The notes under the pieces: model-generated
Seen by the model: only the letters and a program-made list of their open reading frames with translations
What the model was told of the DNA's origin: nothing
The model's database searches: none
Assembly (NCBI GenBank): GCA_036482575.1
Contig: JAZGJJ010000114.1
Span: 1 to 33,079, forward strand
Length of the DNA: 33,079 nt
Direction of reading: 5' to 3'
From: Thermodesulfobacteriota bacterium
Lineage (GTDB): Bacteria > Desulfobacterota > GWC2-55-46 > JAUVFY01
Part shown: positions 2,898 through 33,062 of the stretch, in pieces
Position numbering within the stretch: position 1 is the first letter of the stretch
Layout of the letters: every line of letters starts with the position of its first letter
Position numbers and translations under genes: made by a program

Positions 2898-3959
2898 CTA
2901 CTTCCCGCTCAAAAGCGCCTGTTCCGAAGGGGCCAGCTTGATCGAGAGCCCGGCCTTCCCGCCGCCGCCCGAAATGAGCTTTGCGGTATCGACCATCCCG
3001 AGATTATGCTTGGCGACCTCCGTAAACCAGACGAGCCCCGACCCGCCCGCGGCTATGTCCACGGGCTTTCCCGAGGCCTTGGGAAGGTCTATCTCAAGAA
3101 AGCTCTTGCTCTTCGTGTCGAACCTCCCTATCCTCCCCCCCAGCGAATCACAGTACCAGAGCATTCCCTTCCGGTCGATTGCCAACCCTTCGGGGACCCT
3201 TTTCCCGGGCATATCGAACTCCTTAAAACTCCCCTTCGCCCCCTTAACCCCTTTCTCCAGGTCAAAGCGGACTATCTTATGGCTATTCCTTGCCCCGAAC
3301 CACAGGTAGCCGTCTCCGTCGGCCACGAGCTCCCCTGGTATGGCAAAGGGCGGCGAGATGGTAATCTCGGTTATCTTCCCGGTTTCCGGCTCCAGGCGCG
3401 CAATCTTATTCGCCTGCGACTCCACGAACCAGACCTCCCCCGAGTCCAGGGCCACGATCCCTACGGGCTGGCTCTGCTTGGTGGGGATGGAAAATTCCTT
3501 TATTTTAGAGGTCTTGGGGTCGAGCATGCCTATCTTATTCGCCATGAACTCGGTAAACCAGACCCTGCCATGTCCGTCGATTGCTATCTTATAGGCCTGG
3601 GATTTGGGTGTGGGTATCTCGACCTCCTCGAACTCGCCCGTTTTCGGGTCAAAAGAGCCTATCTGGTTCGCGTCCTGCTCGACGAACCAGATCCTGCCGT
3701 CCGGACCTATGGCCAGGTCTATCGGCACGCTCGAGGATGTGGGAATTTCGAACTCTTTGAAGACCGAAATTGAAGGCTGGAAGCGCACGAGCTTGTTGGC
3801 CCTGGCCTCCAGGAACCAGACGTTGCCCGATGGGTCCTCCGCCACGGCAACCGGGAAGGAGCGGGGGCTTGGGGCCGGATGCAACTCCACGCCGGAGCCC
3901 GCGAAGGAAGGGACCGCGAATGTCAGTATGAATAGCGTAATTAGCGGAAGGTTTCTCAT
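2898..3959 (-). CDS. Secreted seven-bladed beta-propeller, Vgb / streptogramin-lyase-like repeat family (COG4257-like)
   Basis: Signal peptide MRNLPLITLFILTFAVPSFA. Seven repeats of the G.(V/I)WF.E...NKIG..DP type (GNVWFLE, GRIWFVE, GRVWFTE, GEVWFVE, GYLWFGA, GMLWYCD, GLVWFTE). Confidence 0.85.
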   Translation of the reverse strand: MRNLPLITLFILTFAVPSFAGSGVELHPAPSPRSFPVAVAEDPSGNVWFLEARANKLVRFQPSISVFKEFEIPTSSSVPIDLAIGPDGRIWFVEQDANQIGSFDPKTGEFEEVEIPTPKSQAYKIAIDGHGRVWFTEFMANKIGMLDPKTSKIKEFSIPTKQSQPVGIVALDSGEVWFVESQANKIARLEPETGKITEITISPPFAIPGELVADGDGYLWFGARNSHKIVRFDLEKGVKGAKGSFKEFDMPGKRVPEGLAIDRKGMLWYCDSLGGRIGRFDTKSKSFLEIDLPKASGKPVDIAAGGSGLVWFTEVAKHNLGMVDTAKLISGGGGKAGLSIKLAPSEQALLSGK

Positions 3960-3965
3960 ATCAGC

Positions 3966-5207
3966 CTACTTCTGTGTCCTGCGGATAATATACCACAAAG
4001 CCGCCGCGAATAGAACGAAAACCACGATTGCGGCCGCCGCCTTGCCCGAGCCTCCGCCCCCTCCGCCCTCGCCGCCCTTAGCCTCCTCCGCAGGGGGAGG
4101 AGTATCCACCATCGCCGGGCCGGTATCCTCTGCCGGGGGCTCCTCCAGGGTCGTCTCTTCGACTGCCGGGACGAGCATCAAGATACTGTTGGCGTCCCTG
4201 TCGGACTCGGTAAGCCAGACCCTGCCGCGAGGGTCTACGGCTATGCCGCTCGGGAGGCTCCTGGGGGTGGGGATATCGTACTCCCTGAAGGTCGCGCTCC
4301 GGGGGTCGAAGCTGCCCACCTTGTTCCCCCTGTTCTCCACAAACCAGATAAGGCCGTCGGCACCCACGGCAAGGGCCACCGGCACAGAGGACACCTTGGG
4401 GATGGTCGCCTCGTTGAACTCCCCGGTGGCCGGGTCTAACATACCGATCTTATTGCCGTTCATCTCGACGAACCACACGCGGTCGTCGCTGTCGACGATA
4501 AGGTCCGCGGGGTTCACAAAGGGGTGCTGGATGAGGTATTCGGTCATCGAGCCGGCGGCCAGGTCGAGCTTTCCGATCTTATTGCCAACGGATTCGGCGA
4601 ACCAGACGACCCCGTTCGAATCCACGCTTATACCGTTAGGCTGGCTGTCCGGGGTGATGACGGCGTACTCCTCGAACTTCCCCTCCTTGAAGCGCCCGAT
4701 CTTATTGGCGTTCCTCTCGGTAAACCATACCGCGCCGTCCGGGGCCACGGCGATCTTATACGGCTCGGCCGCGGGGGTTGGGACCTTGAAGGTCTCCGTC
4801 TTGCCGGAGGCCGGAGATATGCGCCCTATGGAGTTCACCGCGGAGGAGACGAGCGTGAACCAGATCGTCCCGTCCGGGGCCGCGGTTATGTCCGCCGGGC
4901 TCGCGCCAGCGGGCAGGTCGAACTCCGTAAACTCCTCTTTTTCCGGGTCGAAGAGCCCTATCCTGTGCGTACTCTGCTCGGTGAACCAGATACGTCCCTC
5001 GCCGTCCGAGACTATGCCCAGGGGGTGGCTGAAGGGAGTAGGCAGGGGGTAGCCTTCCATTGTCGCACCGGCCACACCACCGTCGGATGCGGACGCACCG
5101 GGGAGGTGGAGGACCAGCACTATGGCCGCCGATATCAAACACGCCCTCATCACCAGGCGCGCCCTCATCGTGAGGTGGAATATGCCGTAAAACGGGGTTC
5201 TTAACAA
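3966..5207 (-). CDS. Vgb-like seven-bladed beta-propeller with Pro/Glu/Gly-rich linker and C-terminal transmembrane anchor
   Basis: Seven WF(T/V/A)E blades, then ...EEPPAEDTGPAMVDTPPPAEEAKGGEGGGGGGSGK plus the hydrophobic helix AAAAIVVFVLFAAALWYII-RRTQK. The start is ambiguous: TTG 5207, ATG 5168 or ATG 5150 (MRACLISAAIVLVLHLPGASA looks like the signal peptide). Confidence 0.85.
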   Translation of the reverse strand: MLRTPFYGIFHLTMRARLVMRACLISAAIVLVLHLPGASASDGGVAGATMEGYPLPTPFSHPLGIVSDGEGRIWFTEQSTHRIGLFDPEKEEFTEFDLPAGASPADITAAPDGTIWFTLVSSAVNSIGRISPASGKTETFKVPTPAAEPYKIAVAPDGAVWFTERNANKIGRFKEGKFEEYAVITPDSQPNGISVDSNGVVWFAESVGNKIGKLDLAAGSMTEYLIQHPFVNPADLIVDSDDRVWFVEMNGNKIGMLDPATGEFNEATIPKVSSVPVALAVGADGLIWFVENRGNKVGSFDPRSATFREYDIPTPRSLPSGIAVDPRGRVWLTESDRDANSILMLVPAVEETTLEEPPAEDTGPAMVDTPPPAEEAKGGEGGGGGGSGKAAAAIVVFVLFAAALWYIIRRTQK

Positions 5208-7952: not shown

Positions 7953-9665
7953 TTAGAACCGCTCTACGCGGGCCGGAGCCGTGATCACCCCTGGTTCAAC
8001 CAGTTCTCTATGCTGCTGGGCTTCCTCGTAGTCACCGGTTACCAGGTTGGCCTGGCCCTTGGGACCGTCCACGAAGAACGTAGCCCTCATCTCCAGATGC
8101 AGCGGGCCGCAGAAGTGCTGGCAGAATATCTCGTACTCGCCGGCATAGTCCGCGACGAACTCGCTCATGATCGACATGCCCCTGTTGGCCGTGAGGTTCG
8201 TCCTCAGGCCATACGGACCGTAGATGGTGAAGCCCATCTGTACGTCCGGGTTCTTGGTGATACCCGCGGCCTTGTCGATGTTGGTGACGATTATCCTCAC
8301 CTTGTCGCCCTTGTTGACCCTTATCTGCCTGGGTACGTAGCCGTAGCTGAAGGCCTTGACGTGGACTTCCTTCACGCCGCCCTTCTCGACTATACCGGGC
8401 TTCCCCTTGTCCCTGGGAAGTATGGTGACCTTCGCGCTACTGCGGTGGGACGGATGGACCTCGGTGATGGGCTTCTTTATCAAGTTGACCGCCTGCCCCA
8501 TGTCCCACTGCTTGATCTTGCTGGCGAAGATGACCTTGGCGTTGTGGGGCTCGCCGTCGACAGGTATTATCCTGAGCGTCCTGCCGTAGGTCGGGCTCTT
8601 CTCGTCCACGTCCAGCATCTCGTGGTTCACGGGCCAACGGATGCCCGTGGGGCTCCACAGCCCTGTGGAGAACTTGTTCAGGGCAAAGACCTTGGTGTCG
8701 TCGGCGCTTATGGCGATGTGCCCGATCCTGTAGTGAATCGGGAACTCGTCGGCCACCGCGAGCTTCTCGAGGTCTATCTTGACGACGGCGTCCGCGACGA
8801 AGCAACTCGTGTAGGAATACCTGCCATCGCTCCTGAAGACGTTGTGGAGCGGACCGGCGCCCGCCGGTATGACCTTCTTAACCGCCAGCTTGTCCACGTC
8901 GATTATGGTTACCGTCGCGGAGAGCTTGTCGGCGACCTGTACGTACCTTCCGGTCGGAGAGACGTTCGTGCCGTGGGGGTTCTTACCAACCGGTATTTCC
9001 TTTATGAGCTTGAAGGGGTTGGTGGAGAAGACACCCACTGTGGAGTGGTAGTAGTTGCCTGAGAATACCATCTCCTTCCTGCCGGGCTTGCTGACGTCGA
9101 GGTAGTCCGGGGCGCTGGGCGCCGGGCCCCAGTCGATGATCTGGGCCTTGCCGGTCGCTATCTCGATCTTGGCCATCTTACCGGTATACTCGCCGGTGCC
9201 GTAGAGGAACTTGCCGTCCTGGGACATCGATATGTGATGTACCCCGAACGGGAACGGCAGGCCTATCAACCTCTCGAGCGTTCCGAGCTGCAGGTTGATG
9301 ACGCCGATGGTGTTGGAGCCCTTGTCGTTGACGTACATATACCTGCCGTCGGGCTTGAGGTTCGAACCGCCGGCGTTGGTCGGAGCGCTGAACAGGTTCT
9401 CGTGAAGGTCCACACCCACCGGTATATGACGGTAGGTCCTCATGCTTGGGACACCGATTACAGCCACCGCGCCGTCGAGGCCGCCAGCGTTATAGAGAAG
9501 CTGGTCGTCCTTCAGCGGAGCATCGTTGGGGCTCTTTTCGGTAACGTGCCAGTCCCTCGCATCCTTCTTTGCGGCAAAGGTTGCATCGGGCGCACCCGCG
9601 AAAACCACGAGCGCTATGGCTGCTGACAATAGACTTATCTTAGTTACTCGCACGTTTCTAGTCAC
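7953..9665 (-). CDS. nosZ: Divergent nitrous-oxide-reductase (NosZ)-like protein: Sec signal, beta-propeller, C-terminal CuA cupredoxin domain
   Basis: The C-terminus IVTNIDKAAG...DVQMGFTI...YEIFCQHFCGPLHLEM carries C-x3-C-x3-H-x2-M (nt 8088-8123) and parallels the NosZ TNID...HGF...C.WFC..LH.EM region. Propeller motifs VHHISMSQDGK, GKNPHGTNVSPTGRY...KLSATVTIID, GAGPLHNVF and IHYRIGH resemble NosZ CuZ-ligand blades. No twin-arginine in the leader. GTG 9665 abuts the SD, so GTG 9653 is a plausible alternative start. Confidence 0.75.
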   Translation of the reverse strand: MTRNVRVTKISLLSAAIALVVFAGAPDATFAAKKDARDWHVTEKSPNDAPLKDDQLLYNAGGLDGAVAVIGVPSMRTYRHIPVGVDLHENLFSAPTNAGGSNLKPDGRYMYVNDKGSNTIGVINLQLGTLERLIGLPFPFGVHHISMSQDGKFLYGTGEYTGKMAKIEIATGKAQIIDWGPAPSAPDYLDVSKPGRKEMVFSGNYYHSTVGVFSTNPFKLIKEIPVGKNPHGTNVSPTGRYVQVADKLSATVTIIDVDKLAVKKVIPAGAGPLHNVFRSDGRYSYTSCFVADAVVKIDLEKLAVADEFPIHYRIGHIAISADDTKVFALNKFSTGLWSPTGIRWPVNHEMLDVDEKSPTYGRTLRIIPVDGEPHNAKVIFASKIKQWDMGQAVNLIKKPITEVHPSHRSSAKVTILPRDKGKPGIVEKGGVKEVHVKAFSYGYVPRQIRVNKGDKVRIIVTNIDKAAGITKNPDVQMGFTIYGPYGLRTNLTANRGMSIMSEFVADYAGEYEIFCQHFCGPLHLEMRATFFVDGPKGQANLVTGDYEEAQQHRELVEPGVITAPARVERF

Positions 9666-11500: not shown

Positions 11501-14080
11501 TTAAAAAACGGTCCTGGTCTTGAGGATGGGAATGAGGGAGGCCTTTTCGGCCGGAAGGTTAAGGATATGCGCTACGACCTCGTGGGGCTTTACGCTTACC
11601 CCGTTTTCGATCCCGAGTCCAAGGGAGATGGTAAGGTCCCCCACATGGGAAATCTCTCCCACAAGGGGCCTTATATCGACTTCCTTTCGCTTTTTCTCCC
11701 TATCGAGGTGCAGTACTACGGAATCCATATCCAGAAAATCCCTCAAAATCCCATCAAGTCTTTTCGGCTCTATGTCCAAGCCCGCCGGGCCGTTTTTCAG
11801 AAATATAAGGAAGTTTTGCGCTCTCATAATAGCAGATAGGGAGGGGAGTTGCAAGGAAATATGCCTCCCCCCGGAAATCTTTATCCCTTCGGGCAGGGCG
11901 GCGTTAAACCGCTCCGCCACGGCCTCGACCGACAAGGGGACGCTGAGTTCGATATCCATGTACTCGTCGGCGCTTTCCACGCCCACGGGCAGCGGCGGGG
12001 AGAAGGCTATCTTCGGAAGAGGGTGGAACCCCCGTGAATAGCAGACCGGAAGCCCAGCCCTCCTTCCGGCCCTCGAGACGGCCTTTACAAGCTCCAGGTG
12101 GCCGAGGAACCTCATCTCCCCGGTCTTCGAAAATGATAGCCTGACCCTCGAACGTTCCTCCACGGCCAGCCTTTTTTTCCACTTCCCCTCCCCATCCCCC
12201 CGGTCCGGCCCGTCGGCAAAGAGCCTGTTCTTTATGAGCTTATGGTCGCATACCCCGCAGTCCGTGCACGGCCCGACCCTGCAGTCCGGGGTCTCCTCAA
12301 CGGAAAGGGACCTCTCCCTCTCCTCCAGGAGGAACTCCTTGGTCACACCCGGGTCGAGGTGGTCCCAGGGGAAGACCTCGTCGTCGGCCCGCCGCCTTTC
12401 GGTATAGAAGGCCATCTCGACCCCCACGGCGGAAAAAGCTTCATTCCAGGCCTCCCAGTCGAACTCCTCGCTCCAGCCGTCGAACCTGCAACCGGCCCTG
12501 AAAGCCTTTTCTATAACCGCCCCCAGCCGCCTGTCCCCCCTTGAGAAGACCCCTTCGAGAGTACTCATCCTCGCGTCGTGCCACTTAAAGCCGAGCCCGC
12601 GCTTCCTCGACTCCCTCTTTAGAAACTGGAGCCGCTCGACCGACGTCTTGAGCGGAAGCTGCGGCTCCCACTGGAACGGTGTAAAGGGTTTCGGGATGAA
12701 GGTCGCCGCACTCACGTTCACCTCAGGCGCCCCTCCCCTCCTCCTTCCCCCTCCCTCACCCCGGCCACCCCGGGCCCTGCGGCCCGCGTCCTTTACCTCC
12801 TTTGAGAGGCGTACGATCCCGGCGAGATCCTCCTCGGTCTCCGTGGGAAGGCCCATCATGAAGTAGAGCTTCATCGCCCGCCAGCCGAGAGAGAAAACCT
12901 CTTCGGCGCTGCGGATCAAGTCCGCCTCGTCGATACCCTTGTTTATAAGTTTCCGGAGCCTCTCGCTCCCGGCCTCCGGGGCGAGCGTAAAGCCGGTCTT
13001 CCTGACCTTCTTTATCTCCGAGGCCAGGGCCGTGCCGAGAGTACCTACCCTGAGCGACGGCAGGGACACCGCCACCCTCTCCTTTTCGAGCCGGTCCATG
13101 ATCGAGCACAGAAGCCCCTCTATGCACGAGTAGTCGCCCGTGCTGAGAGAGAGGAGCGAGACCTCTTCGTAACCGGTATTCTTAAGCGATTCGGTTATGA
13201 GCCTTACGATGCTTTCCGGGCTCCTCTCCCTCATGGGCCTTGTAATCATGCCTGCCTGGCAGAAGCGGCACCCCCTGGTGCATCCCCTGGAGACCTCGAC
13301 ACTCAGCCTGTCGTGTATGGTCCGGGGGAAGGGTACGACCGGCCTTACTGGCAACGGCAGCGCCTCGAGGTCCGGGGCCATCCTCTTCCCGACCCTGGAA
13401 TAGTCAGGGAAGAGCGGCTTAACCTCCCTTACGGTCGAGTCATCATTATATGCGGCCTCGAAGAACGACGGTACGTACACGCCACTCACCCCGGAGAGGG
13501 TCTTTAATATTTCTTCCCTCGACGCCCCGTTCTTTCTGCCCTCGATGACGGCCTCGGATATTTCGGTTACCGCCTCCTCTCCGTCGCCGAGGAGGAAGCA
13601 GTCGAAGAACTCGGCCACGGGCTCGGGGTTGAAGACGCACGGCCCGCCGCCTATGACGATCGGGTCGGCCTCTCCCCTCTCGCCTGCCTTAAGCGGTATG
13701 CCGCCGAGCTCGAGCATGTTCAAGACGTTGGTGTAGGAGAGCTCGTACTGGAGGGAGAAGCCCAGTATGTCGAACTCCCCCAGCGGCGTGCCGGACTCGA
13801 GGGTCACGAGCGGCAGCCCCTTCTCCCTCAAGAGCGCCTCCATGTCCTTCCACGGGGCAAAGACCCTCTCGCAGGCTATGTCCTCGTGAGAGTTCAGTAC
13901 CTGGTAGAGTATCTGTATGCCCAGATGGCTCATCCCCACCTCGTAGGTGTCCGGGAAGGCCATGGCGAACCGGAGGCTTACCTCCGCGGGGTCCTTCCTT
14001 ACGGAGTTGATCTCCCCGCCTATGTAGCGGCTGGGTCTCCTCACGAGCGGGAGATACTCTTTTATGTTATGAGTGGTCAT
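11501..14080 (-). CDS. B12-binding radical SAM protein fused to a DUF2344 (radical SAM-associated) domain, TIGR03960/TIGR03936-type
   Basis: CTRGCRFC (Cx3Cx2C). The C-terminal RVRLSFSKTGEMRFLGHLELVKAVSRAGRRAGLPVCYSRGFHPLPKIAF is DUF2344-like. Start moved to ATG 14080 (GAAGGAGAG SD; MTTHNIKEYLPLVRRPSRYIGGE). Confidence 0.9.
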   Translation of the reverse strand: MTTHNIKEYLPLVRRPSRYIGGEINSVRKDPAEVSLRFAMAFPDTYEVGMSHLGIQILYQVLNSHEDIACERVFAPWKDMEALLREKGLPLVTLESGTPLGEFDILGFSLQYELSYTNVLNMLELGGIPLKAGERGEADPIVIGGGPCVFNPEPVAEFFDCFLLGDGEEAVTEISEAVIEGRKNGASREEILKTLSGVSGVYVPSFFEAAYNDDSTVREVKPLFPDYSRVGKRMAPDLEALPLPVRPVVPFPRTIHDRLSVEVSRGCTRGCRFCQAGMITRPMRERSPESIVRLITESLKNTGYEEVSLLSLSTGDYSCIEGLLCSIMDRLEKERVAVSLPSLRVGTLGTALASEIKKVRKTGFTLAPEAGSERLRKLINKGIDEADLIRSAEEVFSLGWRAMKLYFMMGLPTETEEDLAGIVRLSKEVKDAGRRARGGRGEGGGRRRGGAPEVNVSAATFIPKPFTPFQWEPQLPLKTSVERLQFLKRESRKRGLGFKWHDARMSTLEGVFSRGDRRLGAVIEKAFRAGCRFDGWSEEFDWEAWNEAFSAVGVEMAFYTERRRADDEVFPWDHLDPGVTKEFLLEERERSLSVEETPDCRVGPCTDCGVCDHKLIKNRLFADGPDRGDGEGKWKKRLAVEERSRVRLSFSKTGEMRFLGHLELVKAVSRAGRRAGLPVCYSRGFHPLPKIAFSPPLPVGVESADEYMDIELSVPLSVEAVAERFNAALPEGIKISGGRHISLQLPSLSAIMRAQNFLIFLKNGPAGLDIEPKRLDGILRDFLDMDSVVLHLDREKKRKEVDIRPLVGEISHVGDLTISLGLGIENGVSVKPHEVVAHILNLPAEKASLIPILKTRTVF

Positions 14081-14263
14081 ATACTCTCCTTCTCTGCAAT
14101 CCCCGATTCCCGCCTCCGGCATGACAAAGCATAGATACCGGATCAAGCCTGTCGTGAGTTCATCGAACGGTCCGGTATGACAGAAATGTGTATGCGGTCT
14201 TCTGTAACGTTAGCAACATCTATTGCGGCCGATAGTTTCTAAATTTGAACCGCCCTCAGGGTG

Positions 14264-15847
14264 TTAGCAGACACCGCACCTGAAGCAGCTCCCCACCTCG
14301 CACGGGGGGGTGGTCTTACCTTCGAGCCCTCGTTGGTACTCGTCCCAGAGGTAGCCGCGTTCGAGGCCGTGGTCCACGACCTCCCAGGGGAAGGGCTCGT
14401 CAACACCCCTCTCCCTGTGGACGCACTCTTCGGCCAGGGGGGCAGGATGGTCGGCGGACCTAAGCGCGCGCCTGAGACCCACCTTCGAGGCCTCGGCTAT
14501 CACCCTCCCCGCCCTCCTGTCCGCCCTCGAAAGGTAGGCCTGCGCAAAGGCCTTCCGAACGGAGAGGGTTTTAACGTCGATACCCCCCTCTCTCTTGAGC
14601 ATCTCCTTTATAATGGAGTACCTCTTCTCTATCGTCTCGACCCTCTCGAAGGGGTGCCACTGGAACGGGGTAAAGGGTTTTGGCATAAAGGGGTTAATGC
14701 TGAGCGTCAGCTTACCCTTGCCCATGAGTTTCTTTAGCCTTAGAGAAAGCTCCCCTATGGCACGGGCGTCGGCGTCGGTCTCGGTCGGGAGCCCCACCAT
14801 GAAGTAGAGCTTCAGTTTCCTGAAACCCGCTTCCTTTACAAGTCTTATTGCTTCGTCTATCTCGCTGTCGCTTATATCCTTATTTACGACTCGCCTGAGT
14901 CTCTCCGTCCCGGCCTCCGGGGCGAGCGTAACGGTCCTGTAGCCGGCCTTCTTAAGGAGGTCGAGAAGCTCGGCATCGAGCATATCGAGCCGGAGTGAGG
15001 AGAGCGTCATCTCTCTACCCCCCTCTATCCCGAGCCTCAGGAGTTCTTTCAGGTGCGGGTACTCGGAGACCGCCGCCCCCACGAGCCCCACCTTGCCGCT
15101 TTCCCGAAAGCCCCTCTCCACGATCTCCTTAACCGGGCCGAGCTCCCTCATACGCGGCGGCAGATAGATAAAGCCCGCCGCGCAAAACCTGCATCCCCGG
15201 CCGCAGCCCCTCTCGACCTCCAGGAGCGTCGCGCTGCCGAACTCGGTTGCCGGGGTCAACACGACGCTTTCGGGCACGGGCGAGAGGTCGGTATCTGCCC
15301 TGGCCCTCGTTACCCTCTCCGGCGCGCCGGGGGCGGCCTTTATCGAGGCCACCCGTGGGCCGTCGTAGGTGAACTCATAGAGGGCCGGCACGTAGACTCC
15401 CTCTATCCCTGCGAGCGATTCAAGACCCCCTTCTTCCCCCCCCTGCCCCCCTTCCCCGACGGCTTCGATAAACGGCCCGACCATCCCCTCGGCCTCTCCT
15501 ATGAAGCAGAGGTCCATGAACTCGGCCACGGGCTCGGGGTTAAGGGATACGGCGCAGCCCCCTGCCATAACGAGCGGGTGGGCCCGGCCCCTCTCAATCG
15601 AGAAGAGCGGCACCCCGGCAAGCGCGAGTATGCGGGGGATGTTTATAAAGTCCTCCTCGAAAGAGACCGAGAAGGCGATTATGTCGAAGCGTTCGAGCGG
15701 GGTCTGCGACTCGAGGGAGAAAAGTTTTTCCCCGCTCTTTTCGAACTCCCGGAGCTCGTCCTTATCCGGCAGGAACGCCCTCTCGCACGCGCAGACCTCA
15801 AGGTCGTTAAAGAGCCGGTAGAGCGTCTGGAAGCCGAGGTTGCTCAT
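14264..15847 (-). CDS. B12-binding radical SAM protein, paralogue of 11501-14080 without DUF2344
   Basis: CGRGCRFC motif and a C-terminal CEVGSCFRCGVC. The conserved N-terminal strand (RVRVCLVYPNAYSLG) lies in frame upstream of ATG 15847, so the real 5' end is probably near 15970 (see findings). Confidence 0.85.
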   Translation of the reverse strand: MSNLGFQTLYRLFNDLEVCACERAFLPDKDELREFEKSGEKLFSLESQTPLERFDIIAFSVSFEEDFINIPRILALAGVPLFSIERGRAHPLVMAGGCAVSLNPEPVAEFMDLCFIGEAEGMVGPFIEAVGEGGQGGEEGGLESLAGIEGVYVPALYEFTYDGPRVASIKAAPGAPERVTRARADTDLSPVPESVVLTPATEFGSATLLEVERGCGRGCRFCAAGFIYLPPRMRELGPVKEIVERGFRESGKVGLVGAAVSEYPHLKELLRLGIEGGREMTLSSLRLDMLDAELLDLLKKAGYRTVTLAPEAGTERLRRVVNKDISDSEIDEAIRLVKEAGFRKLKLYFMVGLPTETDADARAIGELSLRLKKLMGKGKLTLSINPFMPKPFTPFQWHPFERVETIEKRYSIIKEMLKREGGIDVKTLSVRKAFAQAYLSRADRRAGRVIAEASKVGLRRALRSADHPAPLAEECVHRERGVDEPFPWEVVDHGLERGYLWDEYQRGLEGKTTPPCEVGSCFRCGVC

Positions 15848-17000: not shown

Positions 17001-17720
17001 TTAAACAGCAATTGCCCGTGGCATTTCGTCCCATGTTCTACCTTCAAGCTCCCGCCCGTTTTTCTTTTTATTCATGCCGCCCCACTGTTTGAAGAAGAAA
17101 GGGACCCCTGCCTTCATACATTGATTGCGAATGTCGATTGCCCATAACGGGTCCATTGGGCGCGCTCTCGGGCCTGATTCACCCCCAACAATCACCCAAT
17201 CGATTCCCTTTAAATTTAGTCGATATATCGGTCCCAAAAGGGGCTCAATGGAAATAAATTTTATCGCCCCCTTTGTTTTACGGAGGTGGTCTATACGAAA
17301 AGTATAGTCCTGGTTCTCTACGCTAACCCCCGTCCAGATATGCGTGTCCAACGGCAAGCGTGGACTTAGTTCAAGTAGTCGGTCAGACCTCTTGGTAAGC
17401 ACTTGAAAGCGATGCCAATTTGCCTGCCTCATCACATCGAATACCTTAAATATAAATTCGTCCGGGACATCCTCGTGGAAGAGATCGCTCATAGAATTTA
17501 CAAAAACGGTCTGGGGTTTTTTCCACAAAAGAGGCAACTCTAATGCATGCCCATGCACAGTTGTTTTAAAGCCGTTGGTGTAGTTAGGCTGTCCCATAGC
17601 CTTGAGTCGTTTCGCCATTCGTTCGGCGTAACAGTGTTTACAGCCAGGACTAATCTTTGTACACCCCGTCACAGGGTTCCATGTGGATTCAGTCCATTCG
17701 ATAGATGAGTTTGCCGCCAT
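17001..17720 (-). CDS. Phage Gp37/Gp68 family protein (DUF5131), three-Cys motif
   Basis: [65 protein letters not shown] and FFFKQWGG are all hallmark blocks of the family. Confidence 0.9.
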
Positions 17721-18562
17721 TACATCATTCCCCGCCTACGGTATTTACTGAAAATATCTCCAACAATTTTACCACCGGTCGGATTCTGAGTGGCAAAAAA
17801 AAGGTAGTAAACAATACTTCCCTTGGTATTTCTCATGGCTATAGGTTCGGGAACATACCCAAAGCCAGCCACTTTCTTCAAGCGCTCTTGATACGCTTTT
17901 GTAAGCATCCTAATATCCTCTTTTCTTTCTTCTTCCGCACCAAACAGGTCCATTTCTTTAGTATACGCTATTTCCCTCCAAGATTCATCCCCCCAAAAAG
18001 CGTTCATTCTCTCTATGTGAGCCGGGCCTACGGTATCCAGCTTATGCTTGAGCACATTCATATTCATATCCATAACTGGAAAGTTCAACAATATTTCCAT
18101 GCTTTTACATTTCCCTGCGGCCTCAACAACTTTCCAGTTCAGATGTAATCCATATGGGTCGAGCAAGCAAAGACCCCTTTCAAACTTCTCGTAGCGCACC
18201 TTCGGAAAGACTTTCTCTAACAAAACCAAATTGCAATCGTCCACATAGTAGTGAACATCCGCTCTGTCCCCTACCAGATCTTTTAAGACGTTCACCTTAT
18301 TTTTGTTCTTGTCTATAAAGTGATACTCACGGAATGGAGTATCTATGTAAAGAGTTCTGATGGGGCTTCCAGAAATCGACTTTCCCGTGGTTTTTGAGAC
18401 ATGCATGCCGGCACCGGCAAAAGCATCTATGTAAATGTGATAAAAACCCTTTTGGGCCGACATAATCTTTGAGAATGCCGCAGCATACTCCTTGATAATA
18501 TTAAGCTTGATCTCGGACCAGTAACCAATTTCATCAAACTTCAACCCCGACTTCTTAACCAT
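17720..18562 (-). CDS. tcmP: Three-Cys-motif partner protein TcmP (methyltransferase-like Rossmann fold)
   Basis: Sits adjacent to and overlaps DUF5131 by 1 nt (TAATG). Motifs [22 protein letters not shown] and LLDPYG occur in class-I methyltransferase order. Confidence 0.8.
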
Positions 18563-18607: not shown

Positions 18608-18961
18608 TCAGTCCACCTTATACGGGCAGTCGCTCATTGATACGCAAAAGCCGTGGTTCGCCGCGCATATCGTAATACAGACGTCATGCCACTCCGCGTC
18701 CACTTCGAAGACGCCGTCGTCATCCCCAGCCGCGGCCGCTGCCGCCTCCGCCTCTATTATCCGCTCCGCCCCGACATACCCGCCGAGGTTTATCCCCTTC
18801 TCGAACGCTATGGGGTCCTTGCTTGCAAAGCCGCCCGTCTCGGGGTCGTAGTAGCTCGCGCGGTAGTAGTAGAGCCCGGCCTCCCGGTTCCACTCCCTTT
18901 TTATACGGGTATACACCAACATGGGGACGCTTTCCGTGCTTTTGCTTATCACAGTCGACAT
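18608..18961 (-). CDS. Orphan RHS repeat-associated core fragment with a short Cys-rich tail (probable gene remnant)
   Basis: REWNREAGLYYYRASYYDPETGGFASKDPIAFEKGINLGGYV matches the end of RHS/YD cores. There are no YD repeats upstream and no DPxGL. The tail is CITICAANHGFCVSMSDCPYKVD. Confidence 0.7.
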   Translation of the reverse strand: MSTVISKSTESVPMLVYTRIKREWNREAGLYYYRASYYDPETGGFASKDPIAFEKGINLGGYVGAERIIEAEAAAAAAGDDDGVFEVDAEWHDVCITICAANHGFCVSMSDCPYKVD

Positions 18962-27895: not shown

Positions 27896-29268
27896 CGTAA
27901 GGCCATGACGAGCTCTTTAAACGCCTCGCCCCTCTCCTCGAAGCTCTCGAACATATCGAAGCTCGAACAGGCCGGAGAGAGGAGCACCGTGTCCCCGGCC
28001 CGGGCCGCCGCCGACGCCGTTTCCACGGCTTCGGCCAGCCCGCCTGCGAGTACCGTCTCCGTAACGTCGCCGAGCGCCTCTTTCATCTTGCTCCTCGCTT
28101 CACCCATGAGGACGAGGAGCCTGACGTTGCGCCCTATCGCTTCCCTTAAGACCCCGTAGTCGCCGCCCTTGTCGACCCCGCCGGCCAGCAGCACTACCGG
28201 GCCGCCGGTAGCCTCTATCGCCCTCAGGACCGCGTCCGTGTTGGTGGCCTTCGAGTCGTTTACGTAGCCGACCCCTTCGAACTCCCTTACCGGCTCCATC
28301 CTGTGCGGCAGGCCTCTAAACCCGTTGACCGCCTCGACTATCGTCTCCCGCGGTACGCCGACGGTCCTTGCCGCGGCTACGGCGGCCATTACGTTCTCGA
28401 TATTATGAAGGCCCTTCAGCTTAAAGCCCCCGGTCGGGTAAAGCTCGCGGCCGGCGGCGGAGGCAAAGACTATATCCCCTCCGTCACGGTATAGACCCTC
28501 GTCAAGCTGCCCGGCGCCCGTAAAGGGTATGACCGCGGCCTTGAGCTCCGCGCGAGAGACCGCGTCGGCCACGACCCTGTCGCCTACGTTAATAACCGCG
28601 TAGTCGTCCGCGCCCTGGTTGCTGAAAATCCTCATCTTCGTCTCCGCGTACTCTTCGAACTCCCTGTACCTGTAGAGGTGGTCCTCGGTTACGTTCAGGA
28701 GGACCGCCACATGCGGCCTGAAAGTCTCTATCGCCTCGAGGTGGAAGCTGCTCACCTCTAAGACCACCAGCTCGGCGTCCTCCGCCCCTTCGAAGTACTC
28801 GGTTACCGGGGTGCCTATGTTGCCTCCCACGAAGACCTTCCTGCCGTGGGCCCCGAGCACCGCACCGAGGAGTTCCACCACGGTGGACTTGCCGTTGGTG
28901 CCGGTGACCGCGACTATGGGGACCTCGATAAAGCGACAAGCGAGTTCTATGTCGCTTACCACCTCGACCCCGGCCGCCGCGGCACGAACGAGTTCGGGAA
29001 GCGTCCGCGGCACGCCCGGGCTCACCACTATCATGTCGGCCCCGAGAAAACTCTCGGGGTTGTGGGCCCCGGCCTCCACCACGACTCCGAGCCCAAGAAG
29101 CTCGGCCGCGCCGAAAAGCTCTTCTACCGGGCTTATGTCGGTGGCCGTTACCTCGGCCCCGCTCCGCCGAAGGAAGCGGGAGACGGACACCCCGCTCCGC
29201 CCGAGGCCCACGACCAGGACCTTCCTGCCCGAAAGCGTATTGAGGGCCTTTGCACTCCCCTCTCCCAC
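27892..29268 (-). CDS. murD: UDP-N-acetylmuramoylalanine--D-glutamate ligase
   Basis: KVLVVGLGRSGVS, VTGTNGKSTV. Probable start is GTG 29268, 2 nt after the mraY stop. The track start at 29358 would overlap mraY by 88 nt. Confidence 0.9.
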   Translation of the reverse strand: MGEGSAKALNTLSGRKVLVVGLGRSGVSVSRFLRRSGAEVTATDISPVEELFGAAELLGLGVVVEAGAHNPESFLGADMIVVSPGVPRTLPELVRAAAAGVEVVSDIELACRFIEVPIVAVTGTNGKSTVVELLGAVLGAHGRKVFVGGNIGTPVTEYFEGAEDAELVVLEVSSFHLEAIETFRPHVAVLLNVTEDHLYRYREFEEYAETKMRIFSNQGADDYAVINVGDRVVADAVSRAELKAAVIPFTGAGQLDEGLYRDGGDIVFASAAGRELYPTGGFKLKGLHNIENVMAAVAAARTVGVPRETIVEAVNGFRGLPHRMEPVREFEGVGYVNDSKATNTDAVLRAIEATGGPVVLLAGGVDKGGDYGVLREAIGRNVRLLVLMGEARSKMKEALGDVTETVLAGGLAEAVETASAAARAGDTVLLSPACSSFDMFESFEERGEAFKELVMALR

Positions 29269-29270
29269 TA

Positions 29271-30344
29271 CTACCTTATCTTGAGCGTACTTATAGCTAC
29301 GAGCGACAGTATTATCGCTATTATCCAGAACCTTACTATTATCCTCGGCTCGGGCCACCCCTTGAGTTCGAAGTGGTGGTGTATGGGCGCCATGGCAAGC
29401 ACCCTCTTGCCCCTCAGCTTGAAGGAGCCTACCTGGAATATGACCGAGAGCGCCTCCACGACGAATATCCCGCCGACGATTATAAGCAGTATTTCGTGCT
29501 TGCTGGCCACGGCCAGGGCCCCGAGCGCCCCTCCGAGCGAAAGGGCCCCTATATCCCCCATGAAGACCTGCGCGGGATAGGTGTTGAACCAGAGGAAGCC
29601 CAGGCTCGCCCCCACCATGGAGCCGGCCAGCACCGCGAGCTCACCGGACCCGGAGACGTGCATTATCTGTAAGTATTCGGCTATCTTAATGTGACCCGTA
29701 ATGTAGGTCAGGAACAGATAGGTACCTGCCGCTATGGTAACGGGCCCTATGGCCAGGCCGTCGAGCCCGTCGGTAAGGTTCACGGCGTTCGACGCCCCGG
29801 CAATGACCAGCGCCACAAAGGGTATGTACAGGATCCCGAGCTCTATGTGCACCCCTTTGAAGAACGGCACGGCTATGCCTGTATCGAACCCGGACATATA
29901 AAGGAAGAGCCCCGCGAGCAGGGCAACGACCATCTGGGAGGTGAACTTCAGAAGGGGCCTGAGCCCCTTCGGCTCCCCCTTTACCACTTTCTTATAGTCG
30001 TCCACGAAGCCTATCCCGCCCATGCCGACGATTACGAAGAGGAGGAACCAGATTAACGGGTTGGTGAGGTTCGCCCACAAGAGCACCGGCACGATTACCG
30101 CGACAAGGATCATGACACCCCCCATCGTGGGGGTCCCCGCCTTGCCCGCGTGGGTGGGCGGGCCGTCCCCCCTTATCACCTCGCCGACCTGCATGGCCGT
30201 AAGCCTCTTTATAAAGTACGGTCCGATAATGAAACTAAGCACAAGGGCCGTCACGGTCGCGTAGATAGTCCGAAACGTTATGTACTGAAATACGTTGAAG
30301 ATCGCGTGGTACTTGGCCAGTGGGTACAAAAAATGATAGAGCAC
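29271..30344 (-). CDS. mraY: Phospho-N-acetylmuramoyl-pentapeptide transferase
   Basis: (V)[24 protein letters not shown] is the canonical MraY N-terminus. GTG 30344 is preceded by TAAGGAGAGGGG. Also contains [13 protein letters not shown]. Confidence 0.95.
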
Positions 30345-30348
30345 TTTT

Positions 30349-30361
30349 CCCCTCTCCTTAT
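30349..30361. repeat. 13-bp direct repeat, copy 1 (CCCCTCTCCTTAT), at the mraY-proximal edge of the insertion
   Basis: Identical to 31602-31614. It contains the mraY SD and the TAA stop of the 260-aa ORF. Confidence 0.9.
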
Positions 30362-31140
30362 CCCGTCCCTGCGGGAGGATAAAACACACCCAATATCATG
30401 AACTTATCCCTGAACCTTTGCCAATTCCCCACGAAAAAATAGATGTCGTTCTTCTCTGCGCATATTCTATCGAGCCACGTTTCTTTTATTTTCTCCAACA
30501 AAGTGTTTTCATCCTTATATCTCCCTCGCCACTGCCTATACGCTTGACCTATTTCCCAATCGATTATAGGCAAAGTATGGCCTGCACATCCGGGTTCACC
30601 CTGGCAATAAAAAGAATACCTAAAGTCATACGGTATGGGTTCTATTGCCTCCATTCTTTTGTTGTAGAAGCTAAGTTGCGCATAGCAACTCTTCCTCTCT
30701 TGTTGATCTTTTTTCCTGGCCACCTTCCAGTGAAAACCTATATTATGAGGCCTAAACATGCCCAAAGATTTGTCCTTGCTTTTACTCTCCCCATAAACTT
30801 CACACAACGAGGCAGAGACGGTAGGCAAAAGCACCTTCTTTCTCTTCTCCCACCCATTGCTTGTATCGTACACATCGACCACGTTTATCTTGTTGCTAAT
30901 GTCGACCTTAAAACTCTCCGGCCGCGCATCGTCTTTTGCCTTTGAGACTTTTACCTCGATCACACTATACTTCTTGAACCTTTCAGCACTATCCAAGTCT
31001 CTAAAAGGTATGGGGTAAAGTCTTCTCCATTCCCCGCTATCAATATCTACACCGGCAACGCAAACGGTTTCCCCGTACTTCTTGCTCGGATTCGGGTAAG
31101 CCTTAACAGCCACAAGAACTCGTTTGGTTTCCCAAAGCAA
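30358..31140 (-). CDS. Hypothetical 260-aa protein, partner of DUF488; no family recognised
   Basis: Long low-GC ORF co-oriented with DUF488 and 9 nt downstream of it. TTG start after GGGGGAG. Features: [52 protein letters not shown]. Confidence 0.75.
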
Positions 31141-31601
31141 TGACTCCCCCTATAAATGTTTTATTATAAGCCCATTGCCGTCCACTTCCTTAATCTTCTC
31201 GGCCACTATCTTCCTATGGCAATCAGAAGGTTCTTTCTCCATACACATAAAACAGCTAACCCCATGAACTATAGTATTAAGATACAAGTCCCTGACAACG
31301 CTCATCTGTGTCTTCAGATGCTTCCGATACTCTTTGAAAAAATAGTCGTAGTCGTTGTCTTGATAGAGTTTCTGCCGCAATTCCTTTGGGCTTCCTAATT
31401 CTTTCGTGTGCACATACATTATATTGAACCGACCGAGATACTCCTTGAGTTTATTTTTTGAAAACCCGGGTTTTCGGCTGGCCGGAACCTCTCTAACATC
31501 AATAAGAACGTTAACCCCAAATTGTTGGAGTCTTTCAACGAAGTCCTCAATTTTCCTCTTTTCGTATCCTATGGTAAATACCGATATCGGCTCCATGTTA
31601 G
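30362..31601 (-). other. Low-GC two-gene insertion inside the dcw operon (no mobility gene)
   Basis: Bounded by the 13-bp direct repeat. Hand count gives 24/60 G+C for 31141-31200, against 36/60 for 31681-31740 in murF. Confidence 0.75.
31150..31596 (-). CDS. DUF488 family protein
   Basis: VFTIGYEKRKIEDFVERLQQFGVNVLIDVREVPASRKPGFSKNKL, YVHTKELGSP, and CFMCMEKEPSDCHRKIVAEKI are typical DUF488 blocks. Confidence 0.88.
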   Translation of the reverse strand: MEPISVFTIGYEKRKIEDFVERLQQFGVNVLIDVREVPASRKPGFSKNKLKEYLGRFNIMYVHTKELGSPKELRQKLYQDNDYDYFFKEYRKHLKTQMSVVRDLYLNTIVHGVSCFMCMEKEPSDCHRKIVAEKIKEVDGNGLIIKHL

Positions 31602-31614
31602 CCCCTCTCCTTAT
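31602..31614. repeat. 13-bp direct repeat, copy 2 (CCCCTCTCCTTAT), at the murF-proximal edge of the insertion
   Basis: Contains the murF TAA stop and serves as the SD for the DUF488 gene (TAAGGAGAGGGG-CTAAC-ATG). Confidence 0.9.
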
Positions 31615-33062
31615 AAACCGTTTGAACGTGCCGCTTTCCCCAACCGTTCCTCCTTCAAGCCCTCCACCAGCTCTTCCATCCTGACGGCCCTTGAACCCTT
31701 AATGAGGACCGTATCCCCTTTTCCGAGCGAGGAGCGGAGCATCTCTAGCGCCCCCCGGTTGTCATCGAAGCAATGTATGTTTTCTTTCTCCATGCCCCCG
31801 TCCCTCGCCCCCTCGCTTATCGCCGCCGCCCACTCCCCGACGCATAAGAGCACGTCCAGTCCGAGTTCCGCCGAGAGCTGCCCGATCTCGTGGTGCGCCT
31901 CCGAGGAGACCTTCCCGAGTTCCAGCATATCCCCGAGGACCGCCACCTTCAGGCCCGTCCCCACGCTCGAAAGGGTCTTGAGTGCCGCGGTTACGGACTC
32001 GGGGTTGGCGTTGTAGGTATCGTCGAATACAGTGAGCCCGTCGAGATCCAGGACCTCCATCCTGCCGGGCATGGGGAGGTAAGAGGTAAGCCCCTCCCGT
32101 ATCTCATCCACCCTCACCCCGAGCGAGAGGGCGGCCGCGGCCGCGGCCGCCCCGTTATAGACGTTGCACGACCACGGGGAGTTGAGCCTGACCTCGACAT
32201 CTTCGCCGCGTATCTCATATACCGTATCGATTGTATTGGCCACGTTGGCGCCGTTGCGTGAAAAGCACTTTATCCTGACCTCCGCAAAGCCGGCGAGGCC
32301 GAAGGTAATCATCCTGTCGCCCTTAAGTCCGGCACGGTCGGCGATCTTCATCACCCTCGGGTCGTCCGCGTTAACGACCCCCGTCCCCCTGGGGCCGAGC
32401 GAGCGGAAGAGATATCCCTTCTCCTCGGCCACGCCGTCGAGCGAGCCGAGCCCTTCGAGGTGCCCCCTGCCGACATTCGTAACGACCGCCACGTCCGCGC
32501 CGCATATCTCCGCGAGCCTTTCCATCTCGCCCGGCTCGCTTATGCCGAGCTCAACCACCACGACCTCCTGGACGTCGCTCAGGCCGAAAAGCGTCAGCGG
32601 CAAGCCCACGAGGTTATTCATGTTCCCCTCGGTCTTGAGTACGCTCTTCGTCGTCGAGAGTATGGAGGCCAGCATCTCCTTGACGGTGGTCTTGCCGGTG
32701 CTCCCGCTTATCGCCACGACCGGTACGGGACGGCTCCTCCTTACAAAGCCCGCGAGGTCCCCGAGTGCGGTCAGGGTATCCTTGACCGCTATGAGGTTAA
32801 AGGAAGTCGGCAGGTCCTTGACCAACACGTCCCGCATCCCCTCCTCGACCACCGCGGCCGCGACCGCGCCCGAGGCCCCCCTTTTGGCCGCCTCCCCCAC
32901 GAAGCCGTGCCCGTCGAAGTTGGGCCCCTTAAGGGCGAAGAAGAGCTCCCCCCGCCTGACGGTCCTCGTATCGGTGGACACACCCTCGGCCTGGCCGGTG
33001 CCGGCGCCGGCCAGGAGCTTCCCGCCCGTGGCCTCGATGATATCCCTTATAAGCAGCTTCAT
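31611..33062 (-). CDS. murF: UDP-N-acetylmuramoyl-tripeptide--D-alanyl-D-alanine ligase
   Basis: STDTRTVRRGELFFALKGPNFDGHGF, ISGSTGKTT, DDTYNANP. Confidence 0.95.
   Translation of the reverse strand: MKLLIRDIIEATGGKLLAGAGTGQAEGVSTDTRTVRRGELFFALKGPNFDGHGFVGEAAKRGASGAVAAAVVEEGMRDVLVKDLPTSFNLIAVKDTLTALGDLAGFVRRSRPVPVVAISGSTGKTTVKEMLASILSTTKSVLKTEGNMNNLVGLPLTLFGLSDVQEVVVVELGISEPGEMERLAEICGADVAVVTNVGRGHLEGLGSLDGVAEEKGYLFRSLGPRGTGVVNADDPRVMKIADRAGLKGDRMITFGLAGFAEVRIKCFSRNGANVANTIDTVYEIRGEDVEVRLNSPWSCNVYNGAAAAAAALSLGVRVDEIREGLTSYLPMPGRMEVLDLDGLTVFDDTYNANPESVTAALKTLSSVGTGLKVAVLGDMLELGKVSSEAHHEIGQLSAELGLDVLLCVGEWAAAISEGARDGGMEKENIHCFDDNRGALEMLRSSLGKGDTVLIKGSRAVRMEELVEGLKEERLGKAARSNGL

Follow-up and report, generated by a model that had tools for sequence, protein, structure and literature searches.

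The gene pair described here, a DUF488 gene followed by a gene for an OB-fold protein, has its closest described counterpart in PDC-M19, a candidate defense system of the PADLOC collection. PDC-M19 came out of a "guilt-by-embedding" screen, which looked for genes lying within BREX, DISARM, and type I restriction-modification (RM) operons, and is a candidate only; its cassette (CAS_00089, FAM_02799>>FAM_02993) has 174 copies in RefSeq v209 (Payne et al., bioRxiv 10.1101/2024.01.29.577857). Our literature searches found no paper containing the term "PDC-M19" and nothing relevant for "DuOB," the Pfam name (PF22557, "dual OB-containing domain") for the partner of DUF488-N3a (PF22751, "active DUF488-N3"). 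To our knowledge, DUF488 is a large family without an established function. The literature on it is incidental, save for a fusion of a ParB-CTPase fold with DUF488 and a helix-turn-helix (HTH) domain that binds CTP and for a DUF488 gene on Methanoperedens plasmids. A further point of comparison comes from actinobacteriophages, in which genes coexpressed with the immunity repressor can be prophage defense genes, as was shown for gp43/44 of phage CarolAnn (PMC6426606). Here, we analyzed a copy of the DUF488/OB-fold pair in a 33,079-nt contig of a Thermodesulfobacteriota metagenome-assembled genome (MAG) (GCA_036482575.1, JAZGJJ010000114.1; the whole stretch is referred to below as the window), where it separates murF from mraY.

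Both genes belong to the division and cell wall (dcw) cluster, which is among the most conserved bacterial operons, and insertions between them are unusual. We propose, with a probability of roughly 0.55, that the two genes between murF and mraY in the window were acquired horizontally and form a promoter-less accessory module within the dcw operon, most likely a nucleic acid-directed system against phages and other mobile genetic elements, a function that we infer. A defense role is the leading annotation suggested by the PADLOC PDC-M19 matches, in line with one of the roles considered in a first-pass annotation of the window.

The murF-mraY junction and its two extra genes

All genes at the junction lie on the minus strand. 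The murF gene (31611-33062; UDP-MurNAc-tripeptide--D-Ala-D-Ala ligase), named MurF, partial, by NCBI, matched Pfam Mur_ligase_M, Mur_ligase_C, and Mur_ligase, and mraY (29271-30344; phospho-MurNAc-pentapeptide translocase) matched Glycos_transf_4 and MraY_sig1. The GTG start of mraY at 30344 agrees with the MLYHF N terminus of its relatives. Between the two genes lie a PDC-M19A-type DUF488 gene (31150-31596; 148 amino acids [aa], ATG start) and a PDC-M19B-type open reading frame (ORF) of 260 aa (30358-31140), which begins at a TTG 9 nt past the DUF488 stop. The gaps to the neighboring genes are 14 nt on the murF side and 13 nt on the mraY side. Beyond mraY follow murD, ftsW, murG, murC, murB, ddl, ftsQ, ftsA, and ftsZ, named from dcw gene order (the Pfam run covered murF and mraY only). 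The first-pass annotation had reported two co-oriented genes splitting murF from mraY, and coordinates and Pfam domains bear this out throughout. Its view that the cassette is embedded in the dcw operon agrees with the coding strand of the insert, on which we found no terminator-like site.

Both genes match PDC-M19 profiles on the same strand and 9 nt apart, which is what PADLOC asks of the genes of this system. The DUF488 protein matched Pfam PF04343 (DUF488) with an E value of 2e-31 (109.5 bits versus a gathering cutoff of 22.2) and PF22751 with 34.7 bits (cutoff of 27). Two PDC-M19A profiles matched as well (PDLC04505, E = 3e-40; PDLC04504, E = 6e-29), in both cases within the C-terminal DUF488 part of the profile (positions 150 to 293 of 294 and 91 to 234 of 234). 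The window protein lacks the N-terminal extension of PDC-M19A, which in one copy from a Streptomyces plasmid is an HTH domain; this absence would fit a cassette that relies on the host operon for expression. The AlphaFold2 (AF2) model of the protein (predicted local distance difference test [pLDDT] score of 92.5) is a small Rossmannoid domain, in which a strand at residues 114 to 118 ends at the invariant C118 and is followed by a loop and then by a helix from the invariant R128. The resulting C-X9-R spacing is unlike the classical C-X5-R. Foldseek matched the model to a DUF442 phosphatase (probability of 0.99, TM score of 0.5), PRL-3, KAP, SsoPTP, the RapZ C-terminal domain, and tetrapyrrole-methylase-like domains, with E values from 1e-2 to 4e-1; a sequence search of the PDB gave nothing at an E value of ≤1. 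A phosphatase/rhodanese-like Rossmannoid fold is a plausible reading of the model. Work by Burroughs and Aravind from 2023 reportedly agrees with a phosphatase-like picture of DUF488, which we treat as a lead and not as a test.

The 260-aa ORF had been called unrecognizable in the first-pass annotation. This label can be dropped, since a PDC-M19B profile (PDLC04508) matched residues 5 to 257 at positions 3 to 262 of 269 with an E value of 6.2e-67 and the structural matches are to tandem OB folds. Searched against the PDB, an AF2 model built from 24 homologues (pLDDT of 84) matched the tandem-OB single-stranded DNA (ssDNA) binders LEF-3 of baculovirus, RPA70, telomere end-binding protein (TEBP), and HIN-200, with about 290 columns aligned, and a viral structure library returned LEF-3 and phage ssDNA-binding proteins (SSBs). 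These matches identify it as DuOB-like, with two OB folds in tandem, and agree with its subthreshold Pfam match to DuOB (see below). In the family alignment, 71 columns are invariant, among them C27, C113, C152, C179, C185, H188, and the motif D194-W-E196; C152, C179, C185, and H188 may form a putative zinc site. We accepted the TTG start at 31140, which gives 260 aa, because it restores the N terminus conserved in homologues. The NCBI entry (V3W31_05115) has 251 aa and presumably uses an internal start some nine codons downstream (GTG at aa 10; 31113-31140).

The window pair therefore resembles PDC-M19 in having the same DUF488 and OB pairing, with adjacent genes and strong matches to both profiles. 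It differs in being codirectional, whereas the Actinomycetota examples of PDC-M19 are convergent, and in lying in a housekeeping operon, whereas the cassettes from which PDC-M19 was defined lie in defense operons. The likeness to the Pfam pair is similar: DUF488-N3a scores above its cutoff, the fold searches return phosphatase and RapZ-C matches for one protein and tandem OB folds for the other, and many homologues of the OB protein at 60 to 68% identity have a precomputed PF22557 match. The window OB protein itself, however, reaches 13.7 bits, below the DuOB cutoff of 27.

Composition and boundaries of the insert

The first-pass annotation had described the insert as AT rich from hand counts. 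Computed in 400-nt windows, the GC content was 0.41 to 0.46 across 30200-31600 versus 0.56 to 0.67 on either side, a trough that covers the two extra genes. Per gene, the cassette had GC contents of 0.405 and 0.444 versus 0.57 to 0.63 for murF, mraY, and murD. The GC content at third codon positions (GC3) was likewise low, at 0.48 to 0.51 in the cassette genes versus 0.77 to 0.82 in the flanking genes (murF alone: GC of 0.634 and GC3 of 0.82). The segment is compositionally foreign.

The insert is bounded by a 13-nt direct repeat, ATAAGGAGAGGGG, which occurs exactly twice in the 33-kb window, once at each edge. The first copy (31602-31614, minus strand) contains the murF TAA stop, and its purine run, resembling a Shine-Dalgarno (SD) sequence, lies 6 nt ahead of the DUF488 ATG; the second (30349-30361, minus strand) contains the TAA stop of the 260-aa ORF, with an SD-like run 4 nt ahead of the mraY GTG. 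Defined by the repeat, the inserted segment spans 30349-31601 (minus strand) and measures 1,253 nt, i.e., one repeat copy plus 1,240 nt. Its deletion in silico leaves murF-TAA-GGAGAGGGG-AAAA-GTG-mraY, and the context on the mraY side, GGAGAGGGGAAAAGTG, resembles the native junction of a relative with an empty site (L172; see below), GGAAGGGAAAAATG.

That a 13-mer sits at both edges and that each copy supplies a stop and an SD sequence had been noticed in the first-pass annotation, with the caveat that it might be a common ribosome-binding-site word of this genome. We compared the 30-nt upstream regions of the minus-strand genes in the window (231 pairs). This pair alone shared 13 nt, and the longest substring shared by any other pair was at most 8 nt, which argues for a real duplication and rules out the common-word explanation. 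The 9-mer GGAGAGGGG has six coding-strand occurrences, but none except the two at the junctions is followed by a start codon. The TAAGGAG core is an ideal SD sequence, and the identity of the copies may partly be kept by selection.

Several classes of mobile element were considered for the insert. In its compactness, AT richness, lack of a promoter, orientation with the host operon, short flanking direct repeat, and patchy occurrence at one site, it resembles integron cassettes, freestanding homing endonuclease genes, and insertion sequences (ISs). It differs from them in having no room for attC, no terminal inverted repeats, and no transposase, integrase, or endonuclease gene. An integron cassette was ruled out because attC is an imperfect palindrome of about 55 to 140 nt, while the distance between the stop of the ORF and the start of mraY is only 13 nt and no suitable inverted repeat is found. 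For an IS element or transposon, only the 13-nt repeat fits, in the manner of a target duplication; terminal inverted repeats and a transposase were not found at the insert. Neither of its ORFs is an integrase, transposase, recombinase, or endonuclease gene, both being assigned otherwise by Pfam and PADLOC, so the earlier statement that the cassette carries no integrase or transposase holds. A structured RNA or tRNA as the target site was also rejected, as the whole window has no tRNA gene and no Rfam match.

Carriers and empty sites in other genomes

Among about 170 loci with the pair, four have it at the murF-mraY junction: the window itself, the 5.2-kb Logan contig L006, L088 (the "Deltaproteobacteria" MAG GCA_016213025.1, JACRBW010000085.1), and L177 (a 1.3-kb Logan contig with flanks consisting of a MurF-like C terminus, ..EGLK.., and the MraY N terminus MLYYFLYPLA). 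The gaps between insert and neighbors in the other three loci are 6 to 34 nt on both sides. The carrier hosts are deeply diverged (identities of 49 to 52% for MurF, 54 to 57% for MurD, and 71 to 76% for MraY); the window MraY is 71 to 76% identical to those of L006 and L088 and has the same N terminus. Two annotation points concern L088. Its DUF488 gene (2198-2653) appears to be miscalled at TTG 2207, as the ATG at 2198, 6 nt past the murF stop, gives the conserved MQPLSLFTIGYE N terminus, and its OB gene is annotated short, at 249 aa.

These loci bear on whether the insert is an assembly artifact, a low-GC fragment chimerically joined into a high-GC contig. The source is a MAG contig and the change in composition is sharp. 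However, three assemblies that are independent of the window and come from other samples have the order murF-DUF488-OB-mraY too, an observation that speaks against a chimera, and frames, stops, and SD sequences run seamlessly through both junctions. We find an artifact hardly credible.

Empty sites were found in the closest available relatives, as the first-pass annotation had anticipated for an insertion. The best match to the window MurF anywhere has 57% identity, and the three best matches (L171, L172, and L173) have empty, compact junctions of 9, 23, and 53 nt. One of these empty-site genomes, L173, is the sister of L006 (72% identity in MurF and 89% in MraY), and the nucleotide identity between the two is 0.8 to 0.9 all the way to the junction. 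A recent import together with murF or mraY segments would leave mosaic, donor-like flanks in L006, which were not seen. The cassette has been gained or lost among the relatives of the carriers. The sample comprises at least four dcw carriers and three empty sites, and the trees are neighbor-joining (NJ) trees on short proteins. In these trees (200 bootstraps), the four dcw cassettes are monophyletic, with support of 200/200 for the concatenated proteins and 90% for DUF488 alone. L006 groups with L088 plus L177 (76% concatenated and 93.5% for the OB protein), a topology that is unlike the host pattern and moderately supported. Cassette identities among the dcw carriers are 64 to 79%.

The low GC3 of the cassette recurs in the other carriers for which we have host values: 0.25 to 0.35 in L006 (host GC3 of 0.75) and 0.24 to 0.36 in L088 (host GC3 of 0.5 to 0.6), compared with 0.48 to 0.51 in the window (host GC3 of 0.8). 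L006 is the most GC-deviant of 106 loci. An exact 13-nt repeat was not found in the other carriers, as L006 and L177 have no comparable repeat and L088 has an 11/13 match that consists largely of stop and start codons. Being exact in one genome only, the repeat is no general signature of cassette movement.

Two histories are possible. Either there was one old insertion followed by at least two precise losses, which is compatible with the roughly proportional divergences of cassette and host, or a junction-associated cassette lineage moved laterally among related genomes. Under the first, the pair could be an old constituent of the dcw cluster in this bacterial group, passed down vertically after a single insertion at a deep node, co-opted for a cell wall or division function, and later lost precisely from some descendants. 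Such a history accords with the monophyly of the four cassettes and with cassette identities that scale roughly, in a star-like way, with those of the hosts; all invariant residues are kept, the ORFs are intact, and a direct repeat could mediate precise loss. However, cassette GC3 is 0.25 to 0.36 in hosts with a GC3 of 0.5 to 0.75 and the same in L006 and L088 though these hosts differ by 0.2, L006 is the most deviant locus of all, and at least two independent precise losses are required because L006 nests among empty-site genomes. Roughly 166 of the 170 loci also lie elsewhere, without a link to cell wall genes, and the partner has a nucleic acid-binding fold. We regard ancient vertical descent as unlikely. 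The cell wall link suggested in the first-pass annotation is unlikely as well and was rejected as a general explanation, given that the dcw cluster accounts for no more than 4 of about 170 loci. In this sample of four carriers, features that favor lateral movement are the unameliorated GC3 of L006, the empty site in its near relative, and the moderately supported cassette topology that differs from the host pattern. Of the earlier claim that the cassette is an acquired insertion, what stands is an insert of foreign composition with empty junctions in relatives; what does not stand is a one-off recent event, as three other divergent genomes carry it and the cassettes are monophyletic.

Pairing, distribution, and a candidate defense role

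The first-pass annotation had called for a survey of how often the two genes co-occur. A profile search of 1.84 billion cluster representatives returned 2,567 for the OB family at an E value of ≤1e-3. Matches at 55 to 68% identity fall in Nitrospirota, Planctomycetota, Omnitrophota, WOR-3, and others and include one locus (L014) from an archaeal MAG. Pairing was counted in 160 loci from species-representative genomes and Joint Genome Institute (JGI) metagenomes. DUF488 lay directly upstream on the same strand in 146 of them and convergent downstream in 4, all from Actinomycetota; in 8 the OB gene started at a contig edge, and DUF488 was truly lacking in 2. The two genes are adjacent in almost all loci, and the OB protein is the obligate partner of this DUF488 subclade. 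The pair was AT richer than its flanks in 102 of 106 loci (mean difference of -0.078; slope of pair GC on flank GC of 0.54).

Plasmids carry the pair as well (24, among them plasmids of Sulfolobus and Streptomyces), and the OB family matched seven temperate Gordonia phages, in which the OB gene directly follows the immunity repressor gene. In Gordonia phage Nymphadora (NC_031061.1), the OB gene (gp43, 40% identity) begins at the repressor stop codon, and the abutting gp42 (L178, 3825-4277), annotated as "HipA toxin," is DUF488 (Pfam E value of 1.2e-29). The DUF488 identity of gp42 was read in Nymphadora; the six related Gordonia records are known by their OB match at gene 43. The placement beside the immunity repressor is shared with gp43/44 of CarolAnn, which are RexAB-like and unrelated to DUF488 and OB proteins, so that CarolAnn offers a positional precedent only (PMC6426606). 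Unlike these repressor-linked defense genes of actinobacteriophages, the window copy is chromosomal and lies outside a prophage.

A minority of neighboring genes encode AbiEii, AIPR, a type I RM specificity subunit, a type IV restriction enzyme, dCTPase, viperin-like, ThiF/JAB, HNH, and integrase proteins. A strong association with defense islands was rejected, since only about 10 of 117 immediate neighbors match defense families. HNH genes (HNH, HNH_3 with AP2, and HNH_5) adjoin the pair in several unrelated loci (e.g., L087, 2887-3432; L174, 6356-7150), which adds to the likeness to integron cassettes and homing endonuclease genes. Their products could either act as a third component of the system or be homing endonucleases by which the pair is mobilized.

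This distribution also bears on whether the pair is an accessory of DNA maintenance or repair, with an SSB-like protein and a DNA end-processing enzyme that help the chromosome or mobile elements to replicate, recombine, or repair their ends. In its favor, the structural matches are to RPA70, LEF-3, telomere end-binding protein, and phage SSBs, plasmids and phages need such functions, and the neighbors are mostly housekeeping genes, including dnaA and gyrA. Set against this are the patchy distribution and systematically low GC content, the position of the Gordonia copies beside the immunity repressor and outside the replication module, the embedding in RM and BREX operons in RefSeq, and the occasional Abi and RM neighbors. 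A maintenance role seems to us unlikely. A toxin-antitoxin or positional addiction module, in which one product is toxic, the other neutralizing, and deletion costly owing to the essential neighbors, would suit a compact, promoter-less two-gene operon that is found on plasmids and prophages and here sits between two essential genes; a database annotator even labeled the phage DUF488 gene a HipA toxin. That label is wrong by Pfam, however, and neither protein matches a known toxin-antitoxin family in Pfam, NCBIfam, or PADLOC. Both proteins are also unusually conserved (mean column identity of 45 to 67% across phyla), unlike fast-evolving antitoxins, and the precise empty sites show that loss is tolerated. 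We consider an addiction module very unlikely.

In the proposed module, gene 1 encodes a DUF488 enzyme that stands alone, belongs to the "active N3" subclade, and has a predicted cysteine phosphatase/rhodanese-like fold; gene 2 encodes its obligate tandem OB-fold partner resembling ssDNA binders; and the pair is an HTH-less, codirectional form of candidate PDC-M19. Transcription would come from read-through from the dcw promoters, and for translation DUF488 and mraY would each use one copy of the duplicated stop-plus-SD 13-mer. The repeat would mark the insertion in the window genome and could also permit precise excision. The OB protein may recognize ssDNA or DNA ends of an invader, and the chemistry of Cys118 and Arg128 in DUF488 may process phosphate-bearing termini or a nucleotide-derived substrate, with interference with the invading DNA as the presumed outcome.

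Several observations weigh against the proposal of an acquired defense module. PDC-M19 is itself a candidate system. The immediate neighbors in about 60 loci are mostly housekeeping genes, so the defense island association is weak. The E values of the DUF488 Foldseek matches are weak (about 1e-2), though the matches are thematically consistent, and the window OB protein is subthreshold for DuOB. Concerning acquisition, the TAAGGAG part of the 13-mer is an optimal SD sequence and could be convergent, the exact repeat is confined to the window genome among the four dcw carriers, and the roughly proportional divergences of cassette and host are compatible with old vertical descent and losses.

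A more elaborate version, which we regard as speculative and rather improbable, makes the dcw copies a recombinase-free cassette lineage that repeatedly enters and leaves the murF|mraY site by short-homology or flank-mediated recombination. It would borrow the host stop-plus-SD sequence, hence the 13-nt duplication, and would gain constitutive expression and a "positional addiction" from its essential neighbors, perhaps coupling a nucleic acid-targeting immune activity to the expression of cell wall and division genes.

Elsewhere in the window, a second low-GC island (17001-18562, minus strand; GC of about 0.43 to 0.46 versus about 0.60) lies some 560 nt downstream of ftsZ and is the PADLOC candidate PDC-M41. 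It consists of a TcmP-like gene (17720-18562, minus strand; TIGR04474, E = 1.6e-57; PDC-M41A, E = 5e-79) and a DUF5131/phage Gp37-Gp68-like gene (17001-17720, minus strand; Pfam E = 1.4e-102; PDC-M41B, E = 2.8e-121), which overlap by ATGA. The dcw cluster thus has one candidate defense cassette in its interior (the PDC-M19 pair) and another at the distal end (the PDC-M41 pair). A 117-aa ORF (18608-18961, minus strand) that separates the latter from ftsZ contains YYYRASYYDPETGGFASKDP and has no Pfam match; judged by eye, it is possibly the end of an RHS/YD-repeat core with a short C-terminal tail, an orphan Rhs toxin tip. Next to the cassette locus, the murD ORF as listed (GTG at 29358; region 29250-29360) overlaps mraY by about 88 nt. 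Relatives align only from about residue 24 onward, so murD probably starts closer to the end of mraY; in L006, murD and mraY overlap by 4 nt. Two adjacent Vgb-lyase/NHL beta-propeller proteins and a YNCE/nos-propeller-cupredoxin protein are encoded at 2898-5207 and 7953-9665 (minus strand), near cytochrome b and c genes, and two radical-SAM proteins with Radical_SAM_N2 are encoded at 11501-15847, beside RNase E/G.

The pair as such is already catalogued, as candidate PDC-M19 and as the Pfam pair of DUF488-N3a and DuOB. New are its position inside the dcw operon, the monophyletic dcw-embedded clade with empty sites in relatives, and the exactly duplicated stop/SD junction. Together, these suggest that a promoter-less, accessory, and probably immune cassette can persist in an essential operon across deep distances while remaining compositionally foreign. 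The "guilt-by-embedding" idea would thereby extend from defense operons to housekeeping operons. With proteins of just 148 and 260 aa and without the regulator domain, the window pair is a naturally compact version of PDC-M19 and would also be convenient for testing the enzyme function of DUF488.

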